A stretch of DNA of 41,011 nt from Candidatus Iainarchaeum sp. (GTDB taxonomy: Archaea > Iainarchaeota > Iainarchaeia > Iainarchaeales > GW2011-AR10). Of the stretch, positions 3,329 through 31,200 are shown in pieces. The translations under genes were made by a program, and so were the position numbers. The stretch covers positions 1 through 41,011 of the forward strand of contig JACQJF010000052.1 in assembly GCA_016198165.1 (NCBI GenBank), given 5' to 3'. Each line of letters begins with the position of its first letter. Position 1 is the stretch's first letter. The notes under the pieces are model-generated. The model made no database searches and was not told the DNA's origin. It worked only from the letters and a program-made list of their open reading frames with translations.

Positions 3329-3877
3329 TCACTGTGTGAACTCGGTTTCCGAGTCGAGGTCTCTTATGGTTACAGTGCACGGATTACTGTTAATGGTGTC
3401 AAGCCGCAGTTTGTTGAAGTCGTAGTTTTTTGTTATCTCTACAAAAATCCTTTCTTCCGGCATTCCGGTTTTGCATTTTACTTCTATGGCTGCATTGTAT
3501 TGTTCAAGGCCGGTGTTTGGAGGTTCTGGCGGTACAAGGCTTGAGTCAACAAGAGTCGCATTGCAATCCTGGTTTTCCGGCTGGTTGTTTATTGTAGTTA
3601 AATATGTTCCTGTTTGTGAGTCTAGCGTGCCTTTGATGGAAAGTGCATCGCAATTCCCTCCACTTGTTTGCTCAAGCGCGTGGTCTGCAAAGGCTTCCGT
3701 TACTGCCTGGTCTGCGAGGTAGCGCATGACGAGTTTTTTCTGGTCGGTTTTTTCAATGAAAGAGTAGACCGCGCTTTTTTCGCCTTCAAACCCAAGTGGC
3801 CCGAACAGGGAAAAAGCCGCGACCAGGGCGGTGATTGCAATCAGGGCTACTGCCGAGTTGGTCATTCCTTTTTCCAT
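3329..3877 (-). CDS. Putative minor pilin / class III signal peptide protein
   Basis: MEKG then a hydrophobic helix; Cys-containing extracellular domain; last gene of a 4-gene pilin-like cluster. Confidence 0.55.
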   Translation of the reverse strand: MEKGMTNSAVALIAITALVAAFSLFGPLGFEGEKSAVYSFIEKTDQKKLVMRYLADQAVTEAFADHALEQTSGGNCDALSIKGTLDSQTGTYLTTINNQPENQDCNATLVDSSLVPPEPPNTGLEQYNAAIEVKCKTGMPEERIFVEITKNYDFNKLRLDTINSNPCTVTIRDLDSETEFTQ

Positions 3878-4197
3878 TCAATCACCCTGCAGTATTCTTT
3901 TGGCGAGTTAAAGTCGGACTGGCCGCTGCCCGGTTGGAGGTTGAATATCCTGTGTCTTGTGCACTCGTAAAACTCTTGGCCATTGAGGCTTCCCGGTTCG
4001 TCAAGCCCCAGGCCCACCCCGTCCTTGGCCGTGTAAAAACCAATGATTGCCCCGTCGTTTGTCTCGGGCCCGGTTTTTTTTGCAAAATCAGGGGTATTTC
4101 CAGCTTCGATGTAGTGGAACGACAAGAGGCTCAGGACAAAGAACACTGCAAGCATCCCGTACGTGGCGTCAACCGAAAAAATTATCCCCTTTTTCAT
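3862..4197 (-). CDS. Putative minor pilin
   Basis: MKKG/IIFSVDA followed by a hydrophobic helix; ATG at 4197. Confidence 0.7.
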   Translation of the reverse strand: MKKGIIFSVDATYGMLAVFFVLSLLSFHYIEAGNTPDFAKKTGPETNDGAIIGFYTAKDGVGLGLDEPGSLNGQEFYECTRHRIFNLQPGSGQSDFNSPKEYCRVIEWKKE

Positions 4198-4199
4198 GC

Positions 4200-4715
4200 C
4201 TATTGCCTCCAAACGGCTATTGTGAGATTGGCGTCAGCCAACGGGCAGTTCACGCTGTTCACGCATTTTTCCAGCGCCAGTTTGTTTACATCCGGAGCGC
4301 CGTTTTTTACGAGTATTTTTCTTGTCATGGAATAATAGTTTTCCACGTCATCGGGGGTTTCATCCAGACAACCTGTGCCTGTGAAAATTCCAGCAGGCAT
4401 TATAGCGCATCCAAACCAGGCGGGTATTCCAAGCTTTTCTTTTGTCAGCCTTCCTGGTTCACTTGGTATGCAGTTTGGGAGAACGCCGATGTCTTTTGTG
4501 TCTGCATTGTTTGTGAGTATGCATGCAATGTCGGGGCTTGCAAGCGCAAGCCTTGTGGCTCCCTGTGCAATCGATTTCAGCTCGTTTTCCAGTTGTGCCT
4601 CTTTTGCGTTCACTGCCTGCAGTTCAAAGAAATTGAGGAGTAACCCGATTGCAAGCATTATGAGTATGAGTGAAATCACGTAGTCAAGCGAAACTATCTG
4701 CCCCCGCGTTTTCAT
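4200..4715 (-). CDS. Putative minor pilin
   Basis: MKTRG/QIVSLDY class III signal; Cys-rich C-terminal domain. Confidence 0.8.
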   Translation of the reverse strand: MKTRGQIVSLDYVISLILIMLAIGLLLNFFELQAVNAKEAQLENELKSIAQGATRLALASPDIACILTNNADTKDIGVLPNCIPSEPGRLTKEKLGIPAWFGCAIMPAGIFTGTGCLDETPDDVENYYSMTRKILVKNGAPDVNKLALEKCVNSVNCPLADANLTIAVWRQ

Positions 4716-4720
4716 TTTTT

Positions 4721-5167
4721 TCAGCTTCCTGTTTTCCTGATTGCCAAGAGGGAGCCACAGCCTGTATTCAGGTCGTGGCTGCCTGCGTATGGAATGGTTT
4801 CACTTATTGTTTCGGTTTCACCAAGGCGCGGGTAGTGGTTTTGGTCAATGGTCAGGCTAATCAGGCCTTCCACTGGGTCTACTTCGATGTCACAGCTTGC
4901 CAGTGCGCGTGAGCCATTTTTCTGTGCGGATGAAAGGCTCATGAGCGGGATGGCGTAGTTTATGGTGTAATTGTTGTCTTTTTCCAGTGTATGCGCGTAT
5001 TTGAATGCAAGCCCCAGGTCGTTTATTACCCGCTTTGCCTGGAGCCTTACCGCGGTTTTTTCCTGGTTGAGTGAAAAATTGTCGCCAAAGCCCTGGAGCA
5101 CCTGTATTAGTATGAGCGTCATCACGAGTGCTATCAAGAGGTCAAGGCTGAGTTGTCCTTTGTTCAT
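4721..5167 (-). CDS. Putative minor pilin
   Basis: MNKG/QLSLDLL class III signal (QxSx[DE]). Confidence 0.8.
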   Translation of the reverse strand: MNKGQLSLDLLIALVMTLILIQVLQGFGDNFSLNQEKTAVRLQAKRVINDLGLAFKYAHTLEKDNNYTINYAIPLMSLSSAQKNGSRALASCDIEVDPVEGLISLTIDQNHYPRLGETETISETIPYAGSHDLNTGCGSLLAIRKTGS

Positions 5168-5199: not shown

Positions 5200-6750
5200 T
5201 TAGCGGATTTTTTCAACCAGCGTCATTCCTGTCATTTCCATTGGCTTTTCAAGCCCGAAGAGTTCTATTATTGTAGGCGCAATGTCTGATAATGCCCCGT
5301 GTTTTCGGAGCCGTGCTTTCTGCAGTCCGGTGTCTTCTGACGCGAGTATGAAGGGCACGGGGTTTGTGGAATGGCTTGGGATTTTTTCTCCGAGAGGCGA
5401 GATTTTTTCCTCGGCATTCCCGTGGTCAGATGTAACAATGACAGTGTAATCGTTTTCAAAAGCGGTTTTACAGACTTTTTCCAGGCAAGCGTCGACCACT
5501 TCAATTGCTTTCACGATTGCCGGAATGTTCGCTGAATGCCCCACGAGGTCCGGGTTTGCATAGTTGATTGCCACAAAGTCAAATTTTTTCGCGGCAAGCT
5601 GTCCGCATGCCTTTTCAGTTATCTCGTGCGCGGACATTTCTGGCGCCATGTCGTAGCTTGGCACTTTTTTTGAAGGCACGAGTATTCTTTCCTCGTTTTT
5701 GTTCGGCGTTTCCGCCTGGGAATTGAAAAAATACGTGACGTGTGCGTATTTTTCCGTTTCCGCAACCCGCAGCTGCCTCATGCCTGCCCTGGAAATTATT
5801 TCGCCAAGGTTGTTTTTTACTTTGCCGGGGTTGAAGACGGGCGCGCATTTTTTTTCCGGTATCGTTTCATCTGTCTGGACGAAAGAGTAAAATGCCACGG
5901 CGGGCCGTTTCTTTCTCTCAAAGTACGGGAACTCATCCTGTGTAAAGCACTTGATTAACTGCCTCACTCTGTCTGTCCGCGTGTTGAAAAAAACAACTGC
6001 GTCGTTGTCATTGATTGTTGCAACGGGTTTTGCGTTTTCCAAAATAACGGTGGGTTGGATATAATAGTCTGTCTGGTCGTTGCGCGCATAGGCTTTTTCA
6101 ATGGCTTCGAAAACATTGCCCGCTGTAAATCCTTTTCCTTGCGTGAGAAGTTCGAATGCTTTGTGTGTCCGGTCAAAATTGTTGTCGCGGTCCATTGAGT
6201 AAAATCTGCCGACAAGCGTGGCTATTTTCCCGGTTCCAAGTTCTGCTGTCTTTTTTTCTATCTGTTCTGCGTATTTTTTCGCGGTTTTTTCGCCTACGTC
6301 GCGGCCGTCGGCGAAAAAATGTATGAAGACTTTTTTCACTTTTTCCTGTTTTGCCATTTCGAGTAGTGCAAGCAAGTGGCTTATCGTGGAGTGCACCTGG
6401 CCGTCCGAGCACAGGCCCATCAGGTGCAGTGCCGCGCCTGGGCTTTTTGCGTTTTCCATTGCGTTTAGAAGGGCCTTGTTTTTGTAGAACTCGCGGTTTT
6501 TTATCTGTGCGTCAATCAGTGCAAGCGGTTGCCAGACGGTTCTCCCGGCTCCCATGTGCAGGTGCCCTACTTCGCTTGTCCCCATTGCGCCTTGGGGCAG
6601 GCCGACTGCGTTCCCGCTTGCCTCAAGTTCCGTGTGCGGGAATTTTCGGAGAAGCGAATCGTAAAAAGGGGTTTTGGCACGCGAAATGCAGTTGCCAAGG
6701 CCAGGTGGCGCGATTCCAAACCCGTCGATTATTATCAGGGCTATCCTCAT
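5200..6750 (-). CDS. gpmI: 2,3-bisphosphoglycerate-independent phosphoglycerate mutase, bacterial type
   Basis: IIDGFG, GLPQGAMGTSEVGH, DGRD, GRFYSMDRD, AETEKYAHVT, DLVGH, SDHGNAE, SHSTNPVP; start taken at MRIAL (6750). Confidence 0.95.
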   Translation of the reverse strand: MRIALIIIDGFGIAPPGLGNCISRAKTPFYDSLLRKFPHTELEASGNAVGLPQGAMGTSEVGHLHMGAGRTVWQPLALIDAQIKNREFYKNKALLNAMENAKSPGAALHLMGLCSDGQVHSTISHLLALLEMAKQEKVKKVFIHFFADGRDVGEKTAKKYAEQIEKKTAELGTGKIATLVGRFYSMDRDNNFDRTHKAFELLTQGKGFTAGNVFEAIEKAYARNDQTDYYIQPTVILENAKPVATINDNDAVVFFNTRTDRVRQLIKCFTQDEFPYFERKKRPAVAFYSFVQTDETIPEKKCAPVFNPGKVKNNLGEIISRAGMRQLRVAETEKYAHVTYFFNSQAETPNKNEERILVPSKKVPSYDMAPEMSAHEITEKACGQLAAKKFDFVAINYANPDLVGHSANIPAIVKAIEVVDACLEKVCKTAFENDYTVIVTSDHGNAEEKISPLGEKIPSHSTNPVPFILASEDTGLQKARLRKHGALSDIAPTIIELFGLEKPMEMTGMTLVEKIR

Positions 6751-6766
6751 GCAGAGATGGGGGTTG

Positions 6767-7132
6767 TTAAACTGTTTTAATTTTAACTTCCCTTCCAGTT
6801 TGGTCAAAAGCCCTTATTGACGTGGTTGAAAAGGGCCTGCATGCAATCAGGTGGAGTGTGCCTGTTTTTTGGAATGTGCGCACGTCCTGGCTGGATGGCC
6901 TGTTTGAGAATGATGGGTGTGAGTGGCAGGTGCCGATGATTGGCTCGCTTAGCGGGAGCATGTGGAGGTAAATCTGTGAAAATGTCTCCCCGAAAACCGC
7001 GGGGACGACGACGAGTTCTTCGACGGCCATGTTTTTTTCATTGCCTGCAAGCAGGCCGATGAATTCGTGCGGGAAAGTGTTTTTTGAGGCTTCGAGGAAT
7101 GCTTCGATGACTTCGTTTTTGACTGAGAACAT
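6767..7132 (-). CDS. JAB/MPN (Mov34) metalloprotease domain protein
   Basis: PHEFIGLL...HSHPS...PSSQD JAMM motif. Confidence 0.9.
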   Translation of the reverse strand: MFSVKNEVIEAFLEASKNTFPHEFIGLLAGNEKNMAVEELVVVPAVFGETFSQIYLHMLPLSEPIIGTCHSHPSFSNRPSSQDVRTFQKTGTLHLIACRPFSTTSIRAFDQTGREVKIKTV

Positions 7133-7150
7133 TTGCAGTATTTTTTTTGT

Positions 7151-8341
7151 TCAGTGGTTTACATAAAACAATATCGTTGGGAGTATGAGGAATGCCATGC
7201 AGCAGCTCCGGTTGACTTTGCTTGAAACCGCTAAAAGCCCGATGCAGGTTGCAGTCAGGAGCGCGATTAACCCGAGTGGGCCGGCAAGCAGGAGAATCAG
7301 TGCGAGTATGAATGCAAGCGTTGCCCTGGTCAGGAGGGCGTAGTCTGTTTTTTCGAATTTTTTCACGGCGTGGCCTGCGATTATTTCGGTTGCAAGGCCC
7401 GCTAGTCCGCCTGCCGTGACTGCGGCTGCCATTGCAAAGAAGAGTGTTTCGCTTGTGAGCGGGAGTGCCTGTTTTACAAACACTGCCGTGCCTGTGCGCG
7501 TTTTGCCTATGAAGTAAAGCGCTGCAATGCTTGTCACATAGTTTGCTGTCGTGATTCCGCCTGTTAAAAGGAGGTAGCGGGTGCGGCTTGGCTTTGCCGA
7601 GAACTCGCTTGAGGCAAGGATTGCCTCGTTTGGCCCGATGGCGGGCAGGAACACCGTGAAGCAGGAAGCGATGCTTGACAAGAACCCGGCTTTGAGTGCT
7701 TTTCCCGAGTGGATTTTTTTTGCCGCGTAATTTTGTTTTGGGAGGGCGCTTTTCTGTGAAAGGGCAATGAGGAGCATGGGCATAGTGAAAAAACCGGTTA
7801 CGAGTACGAAGAGGTTGCTTTGGAAAAGCGAGTTGTTCAAAAGCGCTGCACCGCTCAGGCCTGCAAGGGCGACAACAAGGAGTGTGAGCAGTTTTTTCTC
7901 CAGGGTTTTCTCCCTCGCTATCATGAAAACGAGGATTCCTGCAAGGGCAACCGGCGTGAGTGGGGCAAAGTCATTGAAAGTTTTTTCAAGCAGTTTTCCC
8001 ATGAACGGTGTCAGTGCAACTGAAAACAACAATGCGGAAAGGCCGCCTGCTATTGTCAGCCTGATTGCGTGCAGAGCCATGCCTTTTTTTGCAAAAAAAT
8101 GCCCGGGTAGCACTGCGAGGGCCTTGTCCTCGCTTGGGATTCCAAGGAGCGTGGCTGGGATAAAGTTGACAAAAGAGTGTGTGATGCTTAAAGCAATGAC
8201 TCCGAAGGCGAAATCTGCCTGGGTTTGTGCGGGAAGCGTGAAAAACAGTGCAAGCAGCGTGTTCACGTGCAGTCCCGGGACAAGGCCTGTCACGAGGCCT
8301 GCTCCGACCCCCAAAAGAACCACGAGGATTGTTTCACTCAA
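7151..8341 (-). CDS. TctA/DUF112 family polytopic membrane protein
   Basis: GLVTGLVPGLHVNT, HSFVNFIPATLLGIP, VLPGH motifs; many TM helices; no TctB/TctC nearby. Confidence 0.85.
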   Translation of the reverse strand: MSETILVVLLGVGAGLVTGLVPGLHVNTLLALFFTLPAQTQADFAFGVIALSITHSFVNFIPATLLGIPSEDKALAVLPGHFFAKKGMALHAIRLTIAGGLSALLFSVALTPFMGKLLEKTFNDFAPLTPVALAGILVFMIAREKTLEKKLLTLLVVALAGLSGAALLNNSLFQSNLFVLVTGFFTMPMLLIALSQKSALPKQNYAAKKIHSGKALKAGFLSSIASCFTVFLPAIGPNEAILASSEFSAKPSRTRYLLLTGGITTANYVTSIAALYFIGKTRTGTAVFVKQALPLTSETLFFAMAAAVTAGGLAGLATEIIAGHAVKKFEKTDYALLTRATLAFILALILLLAGPLGLIALLTATCIGLLAVSSKVNRSCCMAFLILPTILFYVNH

Positions 8342-8699
8342 TTTTTTCCACTTCTTGCGCGATTATTTCCTGCTCGTTCTCGTATTTTTGCGCCCTTCCA
8401 ATTACGCGCACAAAGCCTATGGTGCCTGTTGCCTTGAGGTCCTCTTTTTCCGGGTTGAATTTCACGATTTTTATGCTTCCTGTGTGGTCTGTAAGCGTGA
8501 AAAAAAGGGTGTTTTTTGACACAAAGGCATTGGTTGCTTTGCCTTCAAGCAGGGCTTTTTTGTTCTCGGAAAGCTCGGAAGCCCCGGTGGCAGTTGTTTT
8601 TACAGGCTGGCTCTGCAGGTCCGCCAGAAAAAGGCCTGCCATCCCGATTAAAGAAACCACCGCGAGTGCGGCCCTGAGGTGGGAAGGTGAAATGTGCAT
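8334..8699 (-). CDS. Membrane-anchored OB-fold nucleic-acid-binding protein
   Basis: N-terminal TM; LFFTLTDHTGSIKIVKF...VRVIGRAQKYENEQEIIAQEVE, typical of RPA-like OB folds; overlaps the tctA-like start. Confidence 0.8.
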   Translation of the reverse strand: MHISPSHLRAALAVVSLIGMAGLFLADLQSQPVKTTATGASELSENKKALLEGKATNAFVSKNTLFFTLTDHTGSIKIVKFNPEKEDLKATGTIGFVRVIGRAQKYENEQEIIAQEVEKIE

Positions 8700-8736
8700 T
8701 CAGAAGAAAATGGTGCAGAAAAACAAATAAAAAATA

Positions 8737-8752
8737 TTCGTCAATTGACGAA
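8737..8752. promoter_or_regulatory. Palindromic operator TTCGTCAATTGACGAA, copy 1
   Basis: Perfect 16-bp palindrome 38 nt upstream of the ATG at 8699, next to an A/T-rich TATA-like stretch; identical copy at 25251. Confidence 0.75.
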
Positions 8753-8785
8753 AATAATGTTAATGTTTCTTTTGCCGGTTTGTTG

Positions 8786-8886
8786 CGGACGCAAGTTTGG
8801 CTTTAAGCCAAACAGCGGTGTGAACGGACGCAAGGGCTGTTGAGCGAAGCGAAACGCCCGCGGTGTGAACGGACGCATACCGTTCA
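8786..8886. repeat. Mini direct-repeat array with hairpin spacers (REP-like)
   Basis: GCGGTGTGAACGGACGCA at 8815-8832 and 8860-8877, partial CGGACGCA at 8786; spacers GTTTGGCTTTAAGCCAAAC and a GCGAAGC-containing hairpin. Confidence 0.75.
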
Positions 8887-9275: not shown

Positions 9276-9794
9276 TTATGTTTCTATGTTTCCGGTAATC
9301 GTGACTTCGGCGTCGTTTTTTTCCACTTTCACGCCGGTGATTTTGCCCTTTTCATCCCCCCAGATGGGGAAGCTTCCGAGCGTGCACGTGAAATTAAAGC
9401 CGCTTACCGTGTTGAAATCCTTTGAGCACTCGGTTCCTTCAGGCATCTCATTTCCGCCGTCGCGCTCATCACACGCATAAACGGGTATTCCGAGGGAAAG
9501 GTTGTAGTCAAAAGATATTGTCGCTGGCATGCCGACCGAGGTGATATTGCAGTCTATAAATGTCCGCGCGGGGACGTAGACCCTGATTGTCTGTCGTGTT
9601 TTCTCGCCGCTTAGCGCCACTTCGTTTGCGGTGCTGAGGATTTTTTCCGCTGCAAGCCTTGCCTGGCTGATGCCTGCTATTTCTTTTGCCGTCTTTGCTG
9701 ACAGGTCGACGTTTGGGAGGATTATGACGGTGATGTATAAAAGCATGAGGCTGATTATCAGCAGGTATTCTATGGAGATTTGTCCTTTCCGCAT
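9276..9794 (-). CDS. Class III signal peptide pilin
   Basis: MRKG/QISIEYLL; start at 9794; Cys-containing domain. Confidence 0.85.
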   Translation of the reverse strand: MRKGQISIEYLLIISLMLLYITVIILPNVDLSAKTAKEIAGISQARLAAEKILSTANEVALSGEKTRQTIRVYVPARTFIDCNITSVGMPATISFDYNLSLGIPVYACDERDGGNEMPEGTECSKDFNTVSGFNFTCTLGSFPIWGDEKGKITGVKVEKNDAEVTITGNIET

Positions 9795-9798
9795 TTTT

Positions 9799-10908
9799 TC
9801 AGAACACCACGTTAAGCACAATATCGCCGGTTGCCTGCAGTATGATGTATGCTGCAAGTATTGCGGGCACAAAAGGCGTGCTTTCCTTTATCCTGATTTC
9901 TTTTTCGATAAGCCCCATTGAGGCAAGTTTCTGCAGTTCATTTATCTGTTCAAGCGTCAGGCCGTCTGCCTGTGAGCTTGAAACGATTGTCCTTGCGCTT
10001 GGAGCCAGCATTTCTTTTAGGGCCTCTACATTATTTTCCTTTACGTGCTTTAAAATGCTTTTGATTGAAAGTTTTTGTTCTGTGACCCGGCCGTTTTTTT
10101 CCACGAGCGTGACTGCGGTAATCATGCCTTCCTCAAGCTCATTTACCATGATTTTTTCCCCAAGGCGGGTTCTTGCAAAAAAAAGAAGCTTCACGATTGA
10201 AACAAGTGCTGTTCCGAGCGTGAAAATGAATCCTGCCTCCACAAGCACCGAGTTGTCAAGCAGGAACCCTGTTGCGAAAAGGGCAAGGGAAATTGGCTTG
10301 GAGGTTTTTTTGGCGAAAAAAAACAGGCAAAGCATTGCGGCAATGGCTGCCCAAAAAGGCAGGCCGAGGTTTCTTGCAATCGTGTCTGTTCCTGCTGCGG
10401 CCAGGGCAAAGAAAAAGGACGTAGTGGCTGTTTTTGCGAGTGTTTTTTTCAGCTCGCCTATGGCCTGCGTGTCTTTGGCGGTTTTTTTGAGTGCAATTAG
10501 GGTCCCGAGGGGGAGCATGGCGTAGACGCTGTAAATGAAAAGCGACAGTGAAAAGATTGGCAGGGCCGTGGTTGAAAACAGTTCCCCCTGCAACCCAAGG
10601 AGGTTTCCAATGGCCCTGTGGTTGACGGGGTTGAGGGCTGCAATGCCCGTGAAGAGTTTCACGTCCCCGCCTGCCCAGAAGCCGAGTTTCCAGAGCGCAA
10701 GTGAGCCTGCAAAAGTCGCAGCTGCCGCAAGGAAAGAGTTAATCGCGTACGAACTGTCCCCTGTAGAAACCGAGTAAAACGCGCTTACACCCAACCCAAT
10801 TATTATCATGCCATAGGAAACCCAGTCCGAGACGATTCTTTCCCGCAGGTCAGTGTAGGTTGCAATCAGCAAGCCGGCAAGTGTTATAGTGAAGAGTAAA
10901 AGTTCCAT
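9799..10908 (-). CDS. Prepilin peptidase (A24), EppA-like long form
   Basis: ATYTDLRERIVSD, WAGGDVKLF (GxGD), extra TM helices, ELEEGMI, PFVPAI. Confidence 0.9.
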   Translation of the reverse strand: MELLLFTITLAGLLIATYTDLRERIVSDWVSYGMIIIGLGVSAFYSVSTGDSSYAINSFLAAAATFAGSLALWKLGFWAGGDVKLFTGIAALNPVNHRAIGNLLGLQGELFSTTALPIFSLSLFIYSVYAMLPLGTLIALKKTAKDTQAIGELKKTLAKTATTSFFFALAAAGTDTIARNLGLPFWAAIAAMLCLFFFAKKTSKPISLALFATGFLLDNSVLVEAGFIFTLGTALVSIVKLLFFARTRLGEKIMVNELEEGMITAVTLVEKNGRVTEQKLSIKSILKHVKENNVEALKEMLAPSARTIVSSSQADGLTLEQINELQKLASMGLIEKEIRIKESTPFVPAILAAYIILQATGDIVLNVVF

Positions 10909-12092: not shown

Positions 12093-12341
12093 TCATTCGC
12101 CGACTTTTTCGGTTGTCTGCTCTATGCCTGTCCTGACTTCCCCTTGCTGGGTGTTGAAGATGTTTTTAAGCGTGATGCCGACAATCATTGCAAGGACAAC
12201 CGCGCCACCGATTAGCAAGAGGGTTTCGACGCTTGCCTGGGCTCTTTTTCCAAGCGGGCCCTTGCGCGAGCCCGCGGCGCGTACATGCCCTGTTTTCAAC
12301 AGGGCGGTAGTATTGTTTTCCATGCCGTCACCAAATTTCAT
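12093..12341 (-). CDS. Short pilin
   Basis: KRA/QASVETLLLIGG. Confidence 0.8.
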   Translation of the reverse strand: MKFGDGMENNTTALLKTGHVRAAGSRKGPLGKRAQASVETLLLIGGAVVLAMIVGITLKNIFNTQQGEVRTGIEQTTEKVGE

Positions 12342-13285
12342 GCCCCGCCTACAAGTGCCTTTGAAAGGACGCTTGAAGCCGTGTAGGACAGGATTGCAAT
12401 AAACAGTATGATTGGGAAGTATATAATGGTTTTGGAGAGCCTTCCTTCCCTCATGAGCGCCATCATTGCGCTTGCGGCTATTACCTGTGCAACCATGTAA
12501 AACTGCACCCCCAGGTTAATCGTCTCGGCGGCCTTTTGTGCGGCAAGTTTTTCCTCCGGCTTTCCAATGGATGCCGCGGCGTTGATGAGGACGTTGCTTA
12601 TCGTGCCTACGAAACCGAAAATCATTGGAGCCACCACCCCGCCGGCTGCGGTCATGAAAATCACTTGGAGCAGTGTCCTTGTTTTCCTTTCCCTGCCAAT
12701 CTTGTGGGTTTCCCGGACATCGTCGCTGATTTCATCGAGTATTTCCGCAAGCCCCGCCCCTGCCTTGATGGAGTCGATTATTATGGTCACGGTCCTGTTT
12801 ATTATGCGGGAGTCAACGTTGTCCGAAAGGGTCGTCAGGGCGTTTGAAAAATTCTCTCCCTCTTCGAGTTTTCTCAGTATCTCGATGAGTTCTTTTTTGA
12901 GCGGCCCGTACTCGGAGTATGCCACTTCGCGCAGGGCAAACTCGATTGTCCCGCCGCTCTTGAGCGTGTCAGACATCTGCTTTAGGGCATCCGGTAGGTT
13001 TTCCTCTATGCTGTCTACCCTTTGCACTGCTTTTATGTAAGGGTATCCAAGCAGCAGGTCAAGGATGACGATTGTCGTCCCAAAGCCGATGAGCAAAAAC
13101 CCGGGGAGGTAAAAATAGAACATGGCTCCCGCAACCGCGGCTAAAGCCAGGCTTAGCGCTATCCAGATGACCGCGTCTATTTCCAGTTCTATCTGGTCAA
13201 ACATTCTCTGGTACTTTTTCAACGCCCCAATCCGGTTCAAGAACGGGGCCCTGTATGCGAGGTTTAGTGACATTTTTTTTTTCAC
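12338..13285 (-). CDS. Type IV pilus platform protein (T2SS-F/TadC-like)
   Basis: IEENLPDALKQMSDTLKSG...YGPL...GAGLAEIL. Confidence 0.9.
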   Translation of the reverse strand: MKKKMSLNLAYRAPFLNRIGALKKYQRMFDQIELEIDAVIWIALSLALAAVAGAMFYFYLPGFLLIGFGTTIVILDLLLGYPYIKAVQRVDSIEENLPDALKQMSDTLKSGGTIEFALREVAYSEYGPLKKELIEILRKLEEGENFSNALTTLSDNVDSRIINRTVTIIIDSIKAGAGLAEILDEISDDVRETHKIGRERKTRTLLQVIFMTAAGGVVAPMIFGFVGTISNVLINAAASIGKPEEKLAAQKAAETINLGVQFYMVAQVIAASAMMALMREGRLSKTIIYFPIILFIAILSYTASSVLSKALVGGA

Positions 13286-14451
13286 ACGCTTGGCTGTATT
13301 GATTTTATGTAATAAATGAGAAACCCTAGGATTCCCGGGAATATCATGGTATATAATGCAAGGATTATTGATGGCGGCATGCTGACACTTGCAATCGGCA
13401 GTCCAAGCGGCGCGTTGAGGATTGTCCCGATTATTGCAATGAATACGGGGATGACGATGGCGCCGAAAATGAATATTACCCCGAAAAAGTTCATTTTTTC
13501 GGCAAAGTCACGGATGCTCAGCTGCAAGTCAAATGACACGTCTTCTGCTATTTCGTTCATGACGTTTGAAAGCTTTCCGCCGGTCTTTAGGGCCCTGATG
13601 ATGTGGAACAAGGCGTTTCGCAGTGACTTTGACTGTGTGCGCAGGGCAAAGTGGCGCAGTGCCTCTTCAGTCCCGGTGCCCTCCTCGATTTCGTTGATTG
13701 TCCTTGCGAACTCCACTGACAACAACCCATAGTTGCTTGAGGCGATTGTTTCAAGTGTCTTGTAGAGGCTTATGCCGGCTCGAAGCTCGGTTGACATGTG
13801 GCGAAGCGCAAACGGGAGTTCCCTGCTTATTTCTTTCCCGCGTTTTTGTGCAATGCTTTTCGGAATCATTAGCACCATTATCAGCGTGAGGAAAAACATT
13901 CCAATGCCTATCGCAAAAGCCAGTGCGATGTCGAATTTGAGTGCAATGCTTGCCACAATTCCAATTGCCGTGGAAACAACAAACGCGAGGCCTGCAATCG
14001 TTACCGAGAGCGCAAGGTACTGCCTTGCGGAATAGTTTACGTTTGCACTGTACAGGTAAAACGCGAGTTCCTTTGAAATGGGGAACCTTTTAACCCCGCT
14101 GATTAATGGTTCAAGGAGGAGCCGTGTTGACAAAAAAATCCTTCCAAGCGTGCTTACAAGCGGGGATTTTATCTCTATGAGCTCTTCAACCGGTTGTGTC
14201 GAGACTTTGACGCTTTCTGTTCCGCTGACCATTCCGCGCAGTTCGTAAATGCTTTCTTTTGCCGGCTCCTGGGCTCTTCCTTCTTCGCGGTATTTTTTCT
14301 TCATTTCGGAGACAATCTTGTCCACTGTTTTTGGGTCAATCCTTAACTGTTCCTCCTGCTGTTCTTTTTTCTGTTTTTTTGATTCCTCGATTTTTTTCCT
14401 GATGTCTTCAAAATTCATTTTTTTTTCAGCCTGTTGGTTTTTCCTTGTCAA
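13282..14451 (-). CDS. Type IV pilus platform protein (T2SS-F/TadB-like)
   Basis: ISRELPFALRHMSTELRAG...YGLLS...LKTGGKLS. Confidence 0.9.
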   Translation of the reverse strand: MTRKNQQAEKKMNFEDIRKKIEESKKQKKEQQEEQLRIDPKTVDKIVSEMKKKYREEGRAQEPAKESIYELRGMVSGTESVKVSTQPVEELIEIKSPLVSTLGRIFLSTRLLLEPLISGVKRFPISKELAFYLYSANVNYSARQYLALSVTIAGLAFVVSTAIGIVASIALKFDIALAFAIGIGMFFLTLIMVLMIPKSIAQKRGKEISRELPFALRHMSTELRAGISLYKTLETIASSNYGLLSVEFARTINEIEEGTGTEEALRHFALRTQSKSLRNALFHIIRALKTGGKLSNVMNEIAEDVSFDLQLSIRDFAEKMNFFGVIFIFGAIVIPVFIAIIGTILNAPLGLPIASVSMPPSIILALYTMIFPGILGFLIYYIKSIQPSV

Positions 14452-16132
14452 TAAAATCGAGGCACATTTGTGTCACCTTGTCCATTGCGTGCGTTTCGTT
14501 GTCTATAAGTTCCTTGAGGAATTTTTCCCTTTTCTTTATTTCTTTTTCCACGCTGTCAACCGTTTTTCCGGAAAATATCGCAACCGCCTTGAGGTACTCT
14601 GAAGAGTTTTTTGTCCTTGAAATCGAGTCGCTTGCAGGGTCATACTGGAATATGGCCACTGTCTTGGTTTTCCCTTCAAGGCTTCCGGCGACTTCGGCTA
14701 TTTCCGTTACCCTGCGTATTGTCCCTTTTTTCTTGTCATGCAGCCTGTGTTCAACGAGGATGAAATCAAGCCCGCTGAGCATGACTTCTGGCACGTTCAT
14801 GGGCGGTGAAACCACTCTCACCACGGTTTCTCTTGGGGAGTTGGCGTGTATGGTGCCAAGGCAACCGGAATGACCCGTGTTAATTGCCGTGAAAAACGTG
14901 AAGGCCTCTGCGTGCCGTATTTCCCCGACGATTATCCTATCGGGCCTCATCCTCAGAGAGTTTTTTGTGAGAATGTCAAGTGTTATTTCCCCCTTGCCTT
15001 CAAGCCCGGGTGGTTTTCCCTCAAGCCTTATCCAGTGTTTTAACGGCAGGTTGAGTTCAGCGGTGTCTTCAATGCTTATTATCCTCTCATAGGGCGGGAT
15101 GAATGCAGCCAGGGCATTGAGGCTTGTGGTTTTTCCACTCCCCGTGCCCCCTGAAATCAGTATGTTTGCGGGTTTTACATTGAGTCCTTCCACGCAGAGC
15201 CACAGGAATGCCCCGACTTCCGTGTTTATAGTGTTTGAGGTTATGAGGTCAATTATGCTGTAGGGGTCTTTGCGGAATTTCCTGATTGTGAGTGTCGAGC
15301 CGTCAACTGACGCGGGTTCAACGGTCGCGTTCACCCGGCTCCCGTCAGCCAGCCGCGCGTCAAGCATTGGGGAGCTTATGTCCACGCGCCTTCCCACGAG
15401 CCTGGCAATCCTATTGACGAGGTCTATTATTTCCTGGTCCGAGTAGAACTCGATGTTTGTGGTCATCATTTCGTATTGCCTGTGGAAAATGTAAACAGGT
15501 TTTTTCGGGCCGATTACCATTATTTCCTCTATTTTGTCGTCGTTTACAAGCGGGTCTATCAGGCCGTATCCGACCATTTCGCGGACCACGGATTCCGCGT
15601 AAAATTCCCACCTGTGCTGGGGTATTCCAAGTTGTGGAGAGTTTTGTAGTATTTCGATTACTTTTTGGTAGTAGACGTTCCGCCTTTCCTGCTGGTCGCG
15701 TATCTTGAAAGGCGCAATTGTAATGAGGCGCGTGGCGGCTTCCTTTATAGTGTTGATTATCGCTTTTTCCGCGGCGGTGGGCCTTGGGACAGGGGTCGTG
15801 TATTCGGGGATGAATTCGCCCTGTACCGTGTATATTTTTGCGTTTCCATAGGACGTGACCAGTTTTTTCTTCCGGTTGTCCTTTTCCTGCTCCCGTGCCT
15901 CTTCAACCTGGCCCTGGGTTAGTGTTTCTGCGGCACCTGTCTTTTGTGCAGGTTTTGGCTCTTCAGCCTTTTTGAAGATTTTTTGCTCTTTTTCGCCTTT
16001 TTTTTCCTTGGAAAAAATTTCAGGGATTTTTTCTTCTTCCGGTTCCACTGGTTTGGGTTCGCCTGCTTCCTGTTCTGCAAGCCTTTTTTTCTTTTTTATC
16101 TTTTCAATCATTTCATCCATGTAATTAGGCAT
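14426..16132 (-). CDS. Type IV pilus assembly ATPase (VirB11/TadA/CpaF family)
   Basis: GGTGSGKTT, IEDTAEL, LRMRPDRIIVGEIR, NTGHSG...TIHA; start uncertain. Confidence 0.95.
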   Translation of the reverse strand: MPNYMDEMIEKIKKKKRLAEQEAGEPKPVEPEEEKIPEIFSKEKKGEKEQKIFKKAEEPKPAQKTGAAETLTQGQVEEAREQEKDNRKKKLVTSYGNAKIYTVQGEFIPEYTTPVPRPTAAEKAIINTIKEAATRLITIAPFKIRDQQERRNVYYQKVIEILQNSPQLGIPQHRWEFYAESVVREMVGYGLIDPLVNDDKIEEIMVIGPKKPVYIFHRQYEMMTTNIEFYSDQEIIDLVNRIARLVGRRVDISSPMLDARLADGSRVNATVEPASVDGSTLTIRKFRKDPYSIIDLITSNTINTEVGAFLWLCVEGLNVKPANILISGGTGSGKTTSLNALAAFIPPYERIISIEDTAELNLPLKHWIRLEGKPPGLEGKGEITLDILTKNSLRMRPDRIIVGEIRHAEAFTFFTAINTGHSGCLGTIHANSPRETVVRVVSPPMNVPEVMLSGLDFILVEHRLHDKKKGTIRRVTEIAEVAGSLEGKTKTVAIFQYDPASDSISRTKNSSEYLKAVAIFSGKTVDSVEKEIKKREKFLKELIDNETHAMDKVTQMCLDFIDKEKPTG

Positions 16133-16174
16133 AAACGCGTCTAAGATTAGACGCAATTATGATATTTAATAATA

Positions 16175-27612: not shown

Positions 27613-27675
27613 AACCGTTTTGTTGTGGTTTTTTATTGTTTTTGCCTTTTTAATGTGTTTTACTGGTGTTTTTTG

Positions 27676-28272
27676 GTGGACAGGGAAAAAAGGGACCTCA
27701 TTGTAAGCTGGCTGACGGTGAGTTTTGCTTTCGCCTGGGCAGGGCCCCAGATTTTTTTTTCAAGCAGGATTTTTGGGGATTTTTTGTTCAATTTTTTTGT
27801 CGTGCTCATAGCCGTTGGCTTTGGTTTTATACTTCATGAGCTTGCGCACAAGTACGTCTCTCTCCATTACGGGGTTCATGCGGAGTTCCGTGCCTGGAAT
27901 TTCGGGCTGGTCCTGGCGGTTTTGTTTGCTTTTCTCACAAACGGGGTGTTCACTTTCGCGGCTCCCGGTGCGGTTTACATTCTTGGCGAGGTTTCAAGGA
28001 AACAGAACGGGATAATCTCACTTGCCGGCCCGCTTACAAACATTGTCATCGGCCTTGCTTTTTCCGCAGTGGCTTTTTTGTTTGCGGGAAGCATTGTGTC
28101 GGAAATAGCTGGGTATGTTGCGTACATAAATTTTTTCCTTGCGGCTTTCAACCTGCTTCCGATTCCCCCGCTTGACGGCTCGAAAGTCATTAACTGGAAT
28201 GCTTTGGTGTGGGCGGTCTTTTTCATCCCGCTTGCGCTCTTCATTTTCCTGCCGGGCTTTTTCGGGTTTTAG
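27676..28272 (+). CDS. Site-2 protease (peptidase M50)
   Basis: [23 protein letters not shown]; GTG start assumed. Confidence 0.92.
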
Positions 28273-31200
28273 CGCACGTAGCTTAGCCTGATTGTGGAGT
28301 AGTTTTTGCGGAACTGGTCGTAGGCGTTCATTACGTCCATGGAAATTGATGGCGGGATTTTTTCAAGGGCGGTGTCGATGTCGCTTTTGGTTACTTCAAG
28401 TGTTTTTCCCCTGTTTTTCTCGATTGCAATGAGGGCGGCTTCGCGTATAACTCCCTGCAGGTCGGCGCCGCTGTAGCCTTCGGTCTTTCTTGCGATTTCC
28501 TCAAGCCTGACGTCTTTCCCAAGGGGGGTTTTTTTCGTGTGCACTTTGAGTATTGAAAGCCTTGCTTTTTCATCAGGGGCCCCGATCATTATTATCTTGT
28601 CTATCCTTCCGGGCCTCAGCAGGCCGGGGTCAATGAGGTCAGGCCTGTTTGTCGCGGCAATGAAGACAACGTCCTTTAGTTCCTCGATTCCATCGAGCTC
28701 CGTGAGCAACTGGTTTACGACCCGCTCGTTTGTGCCCGAGTCGAATGCCTGGCCGCGCATGCTTGCCATTGCGTCAATCTCGTCGAAGAAAATTATTGTC
28801 GGGCTTACTTGGCGCGCGCGGTGAAAAACCTTGCGGATTCCCCGTTCGCTGTTGTGTGCAAAAATGCCGCCAAAACCTGCTATAAAATTCTGGCAGGGTT
28901 CAACTGAAACATCAAAAACATTGTCCGTATACTCAACAGGCACTATTTTTTTCACCAAGTCCCAATAAATATCTGATTCGCATAGTTTCCAGAGTTCGGA
29001 GTATTGTTGTTTTTGGCTATCCACCATAACTAGCGCTTCGCGCACTTTTCGGAGGCTGACTGTTTGATTGTTTGCATAACTGACAAATGCCTCTCTCAGA
29101 AGATTTTTGATTTTTTCATTAACCGGAATTGCATTGCCTCTTTTCCATTGTACTTCCATTATGTAGTTCTGGAGCGCGTTGTTACGGTGAGAGTCTATAA
29201 ATCCGGCAGCTTGGAATTTTTTCAGGTTTTCAACTCCAAAAATCTGTACCCTAAAGCTTATGCTGCCGGTCCATTCTTTTTTAGTTCTGCAAAAGGCAAC
29301 AATCCCTTGTTTTAGCAACAGATAAAGCAAATCATTGGCCAAAGTTTTGCTGGTTGTAGAAGATTCTACCATTGCGCTATGGCCATTAAATCTGAAGGTT
29401 CCATCCCCACTAAAATAACCCCTCAAGAATGCATTTGTTTGAACATTATTGGAAGTGAACAGCAACCCGGGTATTTTTTTATTAAATGCCCCTGATTTCA
29501 AACCCATTTCTACAAATACATCATGCAACGTTGTACTGTTAATTACAATAGAGTATTCATATTGTGATGCTTGCAATCCTAAGTGTGCAATAGCTTTCAA
29601 TAAGCGGGTGCGGATTTCCTGATCTGCGGCTGTAAACCTCAGCATTTCGTTATTGAATTCACCTTCAGCAATCCATAACCCCGTCATTTCCCAGAAGAAT
29701 TCATCTAACGGCAACAACGCGGGCAAAGAGTGTCTTGCACCTTTACGGGAAATTCTGGCAATGGGCCACTGGGGGGCAAGTTCTGCTGATTTAAGTAATA
29801 GCAAAAAGCTGGCAAGTGAAACCGGCAATTTTTTATCAACTATCTCATACAAAAACTTGGTTTTTTTGTGCAATAATTTGGCAGCCACTGTATATCCTGT
29901 TTTTTTAATGGACTCCACTATTTGTGGGCTTTCAATGAAATACTTTTCTTTTTTTGAAAACAGTTCGGGCAAATTTAAAAACTGGTTTTCAATTGAAACA
30001 TTTGGTAGCTTTGCCGGTATCGCAATAACGCTTTTTCCATTTACTAATTGATCCGGCGTGACAGATTCAATCTCGTTTTCAACCAAGGAAAATACTGAGT
30101 GCTTGTCTGTTACCCTGAGTTTTCTGCCTGTTCTTGTGGTGATCTCAAGCATTTTTCCGTTTAGCGGATGACTAATATAGTCTACGATTTTTGAAAAAAG
30201 AACCCTCCCATCGTTGTCAAACGTAACCACTTGCAGGGGAAGCTTTTCTTCCACGATTTTACCAATTTTTTCCCTGAATATTTTTTTCCCGTCAAAAACA
30301 AGCAATTCTTCCTCATAAGGGAGGCTTTCGCCGACCCAAAGACTTATTAACTGCGGGCCTTTTACCGAAATGAAGTTTGCCTCGCTTTCGGTTGCAACCG
30401 CTTTTGCAAGGAGTGTTTTTCCAGTTCCGGGCGGGCCGTACAACAGTATCCCGCTTGGTGCCTTGATTCCGAGTTTTTTGAAGTCATCAGGCCTTTTCAG
30501 TGGCCATTCAACTGCCTGCCTTAATTCGTTTTTCACGTTTTCAAGCCCGCCGATGTCGTTCCACTGGATGTTTGGTATCTCAATTGTGACTTCGCGCAGG
30601 GCGCTTGGCTGTACATCGCGCAGTGCATCGAGGAAGTCCTGTTTGTTGACTTCAAGGCTTTCAAGGACCTCTGCAGGAATCGTTTCTTCCTCAAGATTGA
30701 TTTTTGGCAGGTACCTGCGCAGTGCTTTCATCGCGGCTTCCTTTGCCAAAGCCTCGAGGTCCGCGCCTACAAAACCATGCGTTATTTTTGCAAAGTTGTC
30801 CAGGTCTACATCCTCTGCAAGTGGCATTCCGCGCGTGTGAATCTGGAGTATTTTTTTCCTGCCCTCTTTTGAAGGAACCCCGATTTCTATTTCGCGGTCA
30901 AACCTGCCGGGCCTTCTTAGTGCCTCGTCTAAGCTGTTGACCCTGTTAGTAGCCGCGATAACAATGACATTTCCGCGCGACTCCATGCCATCCATTGCAG
31001 CGAGAATCTGTGCAACAACGCGCCGCTCGACTTCCCCGATTACTTCTTCGCGCTTTGGGGCAATCGAGTCTATTTCGTCAAAGAAAACAATGCTTGGAGA
31101 GTTTTTTTCCGCTTCCTTGAACACGTCCCGGATTCTTTCCTCGGCTTCCCCGACAAATTTTGAGTTATGCATTACAAGCAATGAATGCCCTGCTAAAAAG

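Follow-up and report, generated by a model that had tools for sequence, protein, structure and literature searches.

An OB-fold/TctA-like gene pair within a type IV-like pilus cluster of Candidatus Iainarchaeum: a candidate DNA-uptake module of archaea

How does transforming DNA pass the membrane of an archaeon? For this step the only candidate transporter has come from one genetic screen in Methanococcus, and the locus described here bears on the question in a DPANN lineage. The locus lies on contig JACQJF010000052.1 (positions 1 to 41,011, forward strand; this whole stretch of 41,011 nucleotides is referred to as the window) of assembly GCA_016198165.1 from Candidatus Iainarchaeum sp., and comprises two overlapping genes, one for a membrane-anchored OB-fold protein and one for a short TctA-like (DUF112) permease, that stand within a cluster of pilus genes. 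We put a probability of about 0.55, a little better than even, on the reading that this pair is the Iainarchaeota version of the archaeal OB-fold/TctA-like transformation module of the Methanococcus type, working with the surrounding type IV-like (Epd/Tad-type) pilus. The observations behind this reading are the families and folds of the two proteins, the overlap of their genes, the lack of any TctB, TctC or ComEC match in the assembly (0.96 Mb in 66 contigs, 67% complete, which is the basis of all assembly-wide negatives given below), and the conserved link between the pair and pilus genes, seen in two archaeal kingdoms. That transformation depends on such genes was shown genetically by others, in the methanogens Methanococcus maripaludis and Methanoculleus thermophilus only (PMC10133366), and would extend to the window by analogy.

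The reference point is the work of Fonseca et al. in 2023, who screened 6144 transposon mutants of M. maripaludis JJ for transformation. Two of the genes concerned are MMJJ_13020, which encodes an OB fold with one transmembrane helix, and MMJJ_13030, whose TctA-like product has 11 transmembrane helices; in-frame deletion of either gene abolished transformation with replicating and with integrating plasmids alike, and each deletion was complemented in trans (PMC10133366). Deletion of the TctA homologue of M. thermophilus, SAMN04488571_104187, likewise abolished transformation, and BLASTP gave no clear homologue of MMJJ_13020 in that species (PMC10133366). The authors point out that archaea are without TctB, TctC and ComEC, and propose the TctA-like protein as a ComEC-independent DNA transporter (PMC10133366). 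Consequently, when the first-pass annotation of the window suggested a receptor and transporter pair serving transformation, and added, as a point to be verified, that a TctA-like gene had been implicated in M. maripaludis, this point was correct (MMJJ_13030, together with MMJJ_13020), and its idea agrees with the family, architecture, gene order and pilus-operon position reported here, but as a hypothesis it had already been published and was not new. What appears to be new is that the pair is linked to pilus genes across kingdoms and is kept almost universally in a phylum of DPANN archaea, neither of which was found in the literature searched. The text of the 2023 paper does not mention pilus-gene synteny, DPANN archaea or mutant piliation (PMC10133366), and neither TctA nor OB-fold occurs in the main text of a survey, published in 2026, of type IV filament systems in archaea (PMC13705601). 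Beyond the 2023 paper and its preprint, a search for later literature on the pair returned a single transcriptome study.

The window pair resembles MMJJ_13020/MMJJ_13030 in that both consist of the same two Pfam-level families, share the architecture of a single helix followed by an OB fold, and are encoded by co-oriented, adjacent genes with the OB gene first. Both settings are also without TctB, TctC and ComEC, as far as the window's assembly goes, and both include a type IV-like pilus with a split platform. The hosts differ: M. maripaludis has been tested genetically, whereas the window belongs to an uncultivated DPANN-type archaeon of about 1 Mb that is known here from its genes.

The evidence on the nature of the OB protein is consistent at the level of sequence and structure. 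It matches PF01336 (OB-fold nucleic acid binding) over residues 51-120 (E 1.5e-8; 34.9 bits against a cut-off of 27), and an AlphaFold2 model built from a 25-sequence alignment (mean pLDDT 94.0) consists of a helix at residues 5-30 and a barrel of five strands, the third and fourth of which are joined through the helix usual for this fold. The best Foldseek match among solved structures is human RPA32 (2z6k_A; E 3.6e-6, TMq 0.64), with further matches to Stn1, the anticodon-binding domains of AspRS, AsnRS and LysRS, the OB domain of PolC, and YgiW. A profile of 25 family members, run against the sequences of the PDB, finds the N-terminal anticodon domain of AspRS (E 4.8e-7), RPA32 of Pyrococcus abyssi (6.8e-7) and the large subunit of ExoVII. 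Because the profile matches and the top structural match agree in this way, the domain can be placed among OB folds of the nucleic-acid-binding kind, and the earlier description of it as RPA-like was apt. With regard to topology, which the first-pass annotation had proposed to predict, the residues flanking the helix in 60 family members (K+R averaging 1.62 ahead of the helix and 1.22 behind it, D+E averaging 1.30 and 2.10, respectively) weakly favour an N-in/C-out orientation, in which the barrel would lie outside the cell.

The same profile reaches 5990 cluster representatives at E <= 0.001, and 133 at <= 1e-30, among 1.84 billion; as a lone query in a word-based protein search, the OB protein recovers one relative only. 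A protein-language-model atlas, taken as a lead only, contains archaeal OB clusters of 111-121 amino acids from Iainarchaeota, Nanobdellota, Aenigmatarchaeota and Methanobacteriota, and NCBIfam holds no specific model for the OB protein or for the TctA-like protein. The strongest matches to the profile are long proteins (300-1000 amino acids) with 3-7 tandem OB modules, and one match of 4767 amino acids contains 33 matched stretches; these tandem-OB proteins may represent expanded surface arrays for binding nucleic acids.

The permease matches PF01970 (TctA) from profile position 1 to 422 of 423 (E 9.8e-35, 120.4 bits), and its AlphaFold2 model is likewise confident (pLDDT 92.1, pTM 0.91). It has 12 hydropathy peaks, and the model contains 16 helical elements including short re-entrant-like ones, compared with the 11 transmembrane helices given for MMJJ_13030. 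Two loops are conserved: the first half carries TGLVPGLHVNT, the second LPxIGxN. A Foldseek comparison of the model with the PDB gave no match at E <= 0.001, and a wide VIA-align search returned as its best match barley YS1 of the OPT family (Z 11.2, 277 residues aligned, root-mean-square deviation 5.3), followed by INDY, YdaH and the membrane subunits of TRAP transporters (Z 4.8-6.1). As these scores lie below the level at which the tool is reliable for helical proteins, no fold was assigned. Predicting a complex of the permease with the OB protein gave a score of 0.50, compared with 0.63 for a control in which an unrelated protein replaced the permease, a result that speaks neither for nor against binding. 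Word-based protein searches with the permease, either as a single sequence or as a 19-sequence profile, returned no protein named Methanococcus. Long reading frames of 508 and 523 amino acids at the TctA gene of two genomes were considered as possible OB-TctA fusions; the one inspected, at L116, is an artefact, the OB protein being encoded there by a separate, overlapping open reading frame.

Could the pair be an ordinary tripartite tricarboxylate transporter (TTT)? The assembly holds a single match to PF01970, none to TctC (PF03401) and none to TctB (PF07331), and no TctB gene adjoins TctA in the window. TctC is also absent from all 41 Iainarchaeota genomes sampled, of which 36 are of high quality and one is a one-contig, 99%-complete genome of the same family. 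The pair is therefore not a classical TTT transporter, and the cognate TctB and TctC genes elsewhere in the genome, which the first-pass annotation had named as part of what would refute its idea of DNA import, were not found in this 67%-complete assembly. The Competence domain of ComEC (PF03772) occurs neither in the pair nor elsewhere in the assembly, and SNase, the product of another Methanococcus transformation gene, gave no match in the assembly. A different proposal, that the pair scavenges nucleotides on behalf of a reduced genome, is not specifically supported: PurC, a marker of purine synthesis, occurs in 31 of the 61 Iainarchaeota genomes sampled for it with no pattern matching that of TctA (the incomplete assembly of the window gave no PurC match), and TctA is kept in families with and without PurC.

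Within the window the pair stands inside the pilus cluster and not merely beside it, because pilin-like genes flank it on both sides. The two genes occupy 7151-8341 and 8334-8699 on the minus strand, exactly where they had first been placed, and their reading frames share the 8 bases 8334-8341; this overlap, the Pfam matches and the AlphaFold2 models bear out the original description of overlapping genes for an N-terminally anchored OB fold and a TctA-like permease. Every gene from 16156 down to 3329 is on the minus strand (Table 1), and the clustering of an ATPase, platform proteins, a peptidase and pilins, with Pfam matches at or above the cut-off, marks an archaeal type IV-like pilus locus of the Epd/Tad type. 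Its split platform resembles EpdJ/EpdK of M. maripaludis (PMC10133366). The pair had been said to lie co-oriented and directly downstream of a pilin/peptidase cluster, which is correct, and further pilin-like genes also follow it.

Comparison with other genomes shows that this arrangement is widely shared. A four-sequence alignment was used to find a set of 74 TctA loci from named genomes, the best matches among which (36-40% identical) are from Candidatus Iainarchaeum, a member of the kingdom Nanobdellati (DPANN). A small upstream gene on the same strand, coding for a protein with an N-terminal helix, adjoins TctA at 28 of the 74 loci, spread over several phyla, which differs from the situation in M. 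thermophilus noted above. PF01336 was confirmed in 28 of 38 upstream proteins scanned; the other ten are two phosphoribosyltransferases, one MTaX1 protein, one protein with DUF4131 only, and six with no useful match. At 16 of the 28 OB-TctA loci a prepilin peptidase and pilin-like genes lie upstream on the same strand, and of the remaining 12, six have upstream stretches shorter than 2.2 kb, and six, with 6.5 kb or more, truly lack these genes. Among the 46 loci where no OB gene adjoins TctA, none has a peptidase or platform gene in its flanks, and one has a T2SSE-type ATPase gene 5 kb downstream. The 16 pilus-linked loci fall into two unrelated lineages, ten being Iainarchaeota-like and six of the Hydrothermarchaeota type (kingdom Methanobacteriati). 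In all six of the latter the peptidase, pilin-like, OB and TctA genes are on one strand; at L007, for example, the A24 peptidase gene is followed by four pilin-like genes, by the gene of a DUF2101 membrane protein, and by OB, TctA and the gyrase A gene (GyrA).

The DUF2101 membrane protein (PF09874, E 7.2e-32; 6891-7646 on the plus strand of L007) is encoded between the pilin-like genes and the OB gene at the other loci of the Hydrothermarchaeota type as well, and on this positional ground is a possible third partner. DUF2101 gave no match in the window's assembly, a negative that says little since the control genomes gave none either. A further observation concerns L043, a contig from a metagenome-assembled genome labelled as a Chloroflexi bacterium, which carries a complete archaeal pilus-OB-TctA locus of the Iainarchaeota type and is probably the result of a binning error.

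Within the Iainarchaeota, PF01970 is present in 162 of 215 genomes, in 45 of the 58 that are of high quality and in 69 of 79 genera; most genomes have just one copy. Forty regions of about 19 kb around TctA, chosen only by their distance from the contig end and spanning 23 family codes, were compared (three of them duplicate loci of the 74-locus set, with identical TctA rows). OB adjoins TctA in 35 of these regions, usually with an overlap of 4-8 bases; a prepilin peptidase gene lies upstream on the same strand in 31, and ATPase and platform genes do so in 28. Such co-occurrence of the pair with pilus genes is what the first-pass annotation had led one to look for. Regions without upstream pilus genes still keep pilin-like genes downstream, and the linkage holds at TctA identities of only about 30-40%. 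In the five regions without an OB gene there is, in one, no upstream DNA, in two, a multi-helix protein, in one, a pilin-like gene, and in one, nothing nearby. The multi-helix membrane proteins that replace OB (L079:8377-8937 and L099:8331-8945; 186-204 amino acids) share one family code and have no Pfam match.

In a FastTree phylogeny of 111 TctA sequences with five bacterial-type relatives as the outgroup, the window protein falls into a clade of 49 rows with a local support of 98, a value that, like all FastTree support, is approximate only. Forty-five of these rows have an adjoining OB gene. The OB label requires 6 changes on the tree, compared with 35.5 when labels are shuffled, and this pattern is one of clustering and not of co-evolution because relatives share their labels. 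Since the arrangement recurs across the phylum and in a second kingdom, it is not a chance juxtaposition, and the conserved position of the pair in pilus operons, a matter of gene order, adds independent support for a functional link with the pilus.

If the pair is indeed a transformation module, a pathway in three steps can be proposed. The pilus and its minor pilins would catch extracellular DNA and carry it to the cell surface; the OB protein, anchored by its N-terminal helix and with its barrel most likely outside, would there receive the nucleic acid; and the translationally coupled TctA-like protein would perform membrane passage or be an essential part of it. The tethered OB protein would in this way fill the place of the soluble TctC in bacterial TctABC. 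We infer, then, that the OB domain binds DNA and faces outward, that it contacts the permease, and that the permease translocates DNA.

Such a system would differ from each of the known ones to which it can be compared. With TctABC, the citrate uptake system of Salmonella in the TTT family, it shares the large membrane subunit, which matches PF01970 over the full length of the profile; the window permease is shorter than the bacterial-type TctA relatives (396 as opposed to 439-446 amino acids, with the conserved motif TGLVPGLHVNT), and its partner is a tethered OB-fold protein and not a soluble binding protein. With the bacterial combination of a pilus, ComEA and ComEC it shares a common logic, namely a pilus, an extracytoplasmic nucleic-acid receptor and a polytopic membrane protein. 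The pair nevertheless has neither the Competence domain nor the metallo-beta-lactamase domain of ComEC, and, so far as Pfam can tell, the TctA fold has no kinship with the channel domain of ComEC. The Ced system of the Sulfolobales is another case of ComEC-independent archaeal DNA import that works with type IV pili (Ups), and employs an ATPase of the VirB4/HerA-like kind together with small membrane proteins akin to parts of conjugation systems. Genes of either sort are absent from the window cluster.

Several observations weigh against a role in DNA import, and the most serious of them concern the permease itself. Its two halves are homologous (hhalign probability 80%, E 1.4e-5, 108 columns), each half starts with a helix followed by a PG(L/I)(H/G)xN loop, and its structural neighbours, weak as they are, are all solute carriers. 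The protein thus looks like a two-repeat secondary transporter for small solutes, which is the main difficulty for the notion of a channel; to our knowledge, no member of such carrier folds passes a polymer. The positive-inside signal of the OB protein is weak, K+R being more frequent before the helix in 25 of the 60 family members, less frequent in 16 and equal in 19. The 184-base gap ahead of the OB gene contains a hairpin that leads into a T run (minus strand, 8752-8737) and resembles a terminator; OB-TctA and the genes that follow may therefore form a transcription unit of their own, and co-transcription with the upstream pilus genes is not assured. Among the compared loci, L006, L013, L042, L050, L055 and L075 have the OB-TctA pair with no peptidase gene nearby although their upstream DNA extends for 6.5 kb or more. 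In addition, gene order shared inside a single phylum is in part a matter of descent and cannot be counted as a set of independent events. The window pair is a putative counterpart of MMJJ_13020/MMJJ_13030, likened to it by family and layout. In the window and in the Iainarchaeota the two genes are surrounded by the pilus cluster, whereas those of M. maripaludis and the pilus genes epdJKL (MMJJ_10560-80) carry distant gene numbers (PMC10133366). Moreover, piliation and electron microscopy go unmentioned in the text of the 2023 study, so that mutant piliation was not examined there and the transformation defect could be indirect (PMC10133366). Lastly, the transcript of MMJJ_13030 rises (+2.63) under selenium limitation and is listed among those of transporter genes; it lies near MMJJ_13000, a strongly induced gene of the YedE family (PMC11097638). 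This response may reflect read-through or a second physiological role.

Because the TctA-like protein looks like a carrier, two rival explanations have to be taken seriously. In the first, the pair would move some small solute by secondary transport (carboxylates, nucleotides or short oligonucleotides, and selenium or other anionic compounds are examples), with the OB protein acting as the substrate-binding subunit in place of TctC and the tie to pili and transformation being indirect. Membership of PF01970 across the whole profile, the two-repeat architecture with its conserved loop motifs, and the carriers among the structural neighbours all agree with this, and OB folds are also known to bind oligosaccharides and small ligands, YgiW/BOF being among the matches of the OB domain. 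The selenium response of MMJJ_13030 fits it too (PMC11097638). Nevertheless we regard such a transporter as rather unlikely, for the closest relatives of the OB domain in sequence and structure bind nucleic acid, loss of either gene abolishes transformation of M. maripaludis by replicating and integrating plasmids (PMC10133366), and a position among pilin genes, across a phylum and in the Hydrothermarchaeota, would be unexpected for a general nutrient transporter.

The second rival would have the pair assist the pilus in its assembly, anchoring or retraction, perhaps as a platform- or stator-like element of the membrane, so that transformation is lost only through failure of the pilus. This explanation draws on the same location inside the pilus cluster with pilin-like genes to either side, on the lack of a gene for a retraction ATPase in these archaeal loci beyond the single T2SSE, and on the absence of mutant piliation from the searched text of the Methanococcus study (PMC10133366), which is the reason that it remains under consideration. 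It is improbable, in our estimate, in that a nucleic-acid-type OB fold and a TctA permease are unlike known parts of pilus assembly, many OB-TctA pairs, that of M. maripaludis included (to judge by gene numbers), are found away from pilus genes, and the survey of archaeal type IV filaments has no such components in its main text (PMC13705601). The remaining idea, that the gene order is merely inherited and the pair has an unrelated housekeeping role, travelling with the pilus operon as the obviously unrelated phosphoglycerate mutase gene and the JAB gene of the same cluster may do, with a possible terminator or promoter ahead of the OB gene, is very improbable given that the Hydrothermarchaeota share the linkage among different neighbours (DUF2101 upstream, GyrA downstream), that the linkage persists at about 30-40% TctA identity, and that Methanococcus genetics tie pili and the pair to one phenotype (PMC10133366).

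Table 1. Coordinates of the pilus cluster and the OB-TctA pair in the window, in the order of the minus strand
Feature	Coordinates	Strand	Evidence and remarks
Pilus assembly ATPase (T2SSE/FlaI-EpdL type), first co-oriented gene of the cluster	14426..16156	-	PF00437, E 2.3e-43
Platform protein 1 (T2SSF/TadC-like)	13282..14451	-	PF00482, E 9.1e-19
Platform protein 2 (T2SSF/TadC-like)	12338..13285	-	PF00482, E 7.9e-18
Pilin, class III signal peptide, 93 aa	11713..11994	-	PF04021, E 1.4e-8
Pilin, class III signal peptide, 95 aa	11065..11352	-	PF04021, E 9.7e-9
Class III signal (prepilin) peptidase, A24, with archaeal C-terminal domain	9799..10908	-	PF01478, E 1.3e-11; PF06819, E 1.9e-11
Pilin-like protein	9276..9872	-	PF04021, E 1.1e-4, at residues 28-49
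Pilin-like protein, 116 aa	8884..9234	-	N-terminus MMTKGQSSIEFLL, then hydrophobic helix; weak TadE match, E 0.0049
Intergenic gap ahead of the OB gene, 184 bases	8700..8883	.	Repeats, hairpin and T run, AT-rich stretch
Membrane-anchored OB-fold protein, 121 aa, ATG start	8334..8699	-	Transmembrane helix 5-30, OB barrel ~48-119; PF01336; AlphaFold2
Short archaeal TctA-like (DUF112) permease, 396 aa, TTG start	7151..8341	-	PF01970; AlphaFold2
Small JAB/JAMM-type protein, 121 aa	6767..7132	-	PF14464, E 2.2e-14; 18 bases after TctA
Cofactor-independent phosphoglycerate mutase (iPGM)	5200..6807	-	PF06415, E 2.6e-75
Four more pilin-like genes (4721-5167, 4200-4715, 3862-4212, 3329-3877)	3329..5167	-	K/R-G-Q-type N-terminal motifs, then hydrophobic helix

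Turning to the neighbouring genes, the larger pilin-like gene upstream of the pair (9276..9872) probably has its true start at an internal MRKGQ motif, and homologues of its product occur in 16 loci, including all six of the Hydrothermarchaeota type. Ahead of the OB gene, the 184-base gap that follows the upstream pilin-like genes contains, besides the hairpin, two exact copies of an 18-nucleotide direct repeat (8815-8832 and 8860-8877 on the minus strand, with a chance expectation of 0.02) and a perfect palindrome near 8793-8811. Judged by their sequence, these elements may represent a regulator binding site, a terminator, a promoter or some combination of these. On the other side of the pair, the JAB protein has an intact H-x-H...S-x-x-D motif, which we take to be the signature of its family, and its weak NCBIfam match is to desampylase. 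A JAB gene lies downstream on the same strand in 36 of the 40 Iainarchaeota regions and is not part of the Hydrothermarchaeota operon; iPGM, a housekeeping glycolytic gene that in the window separates the TctA and JAB genes from the four downstream pilin-like genes, is downstream in 17 of the 40. These four pilin-like genes have no Pfam match, and homologues of them were found downstream in related loci.

Two genes outside the cluster were also noted. A Peptidase_M50 (site-2 protease) gene is located at 27625-28272 on the plus strand, and a Peptidase M50 gene, MMJJ_13210, is among the transposon hits of the Methanococcus transformation screen (PMC10133366), which is probably a coincidence. At 28269-33371 on the minus strand a CDC48/VCP-type AAA ATPase of 1700 amino acids is interrupted by inteins, with two stretches matching Intein_splicing and two matching LAGLIDADG_3.

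A more speculative thought concerns the ancestry of the OB protein. DUF4131 (PF13567) is matched by five of the 38 upstream partner proteins, these being the longer OB partners of Thermoplasmatota TctA genes (E 4.9e-8 to 9.3e-4), and one of the five matches exceeds the curated cut-off (33.3 as opposed to 31.6 bits). Beyond what Pfam's own name for it conveys, we take DUF4131 to be the N-terminal module of ComEC, a transmembrane segment plus an OB fold. Among the short-form OB relatives four of 25 match it weakly (best E 0.044), and for the OB protein of the window there is no match at E up to 1. One could nonetheless imagine, as a conjecture of low probability, that the single-helix OB protein corresponds in archaea to the entry module of ComEC and may even be truly homologous to it; archaea would then have paired an ancient receptor with a repurposed TctA carrier, and the DPANN lineage would have come to possess a single operon-encoded and near-universal DNA-import machine. 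If this were true, a DNA receptor tethered to the membrane and working with type IV filaments would be an ancient possession of both domains of life, and a TctA-fold protein that moves a nucleic-acid polymer would represent a new mechanism of transport.

Whatever the ancestry of its parts, the linkage of the pair with pilus genes offers independent comparative support for a machine composed of a pilus, a receptor and a carrier. The two proteins are compact and well folding (pLDDT 92-94), and as such are suited to biochemical tests. That the module has been retained in the tiny genomes of a DPANN phylum hints at natural competence in archaea that are uncultivated and depend on hosts, a possibility of consequence for gene flow and for the prospects of developing their genetics.

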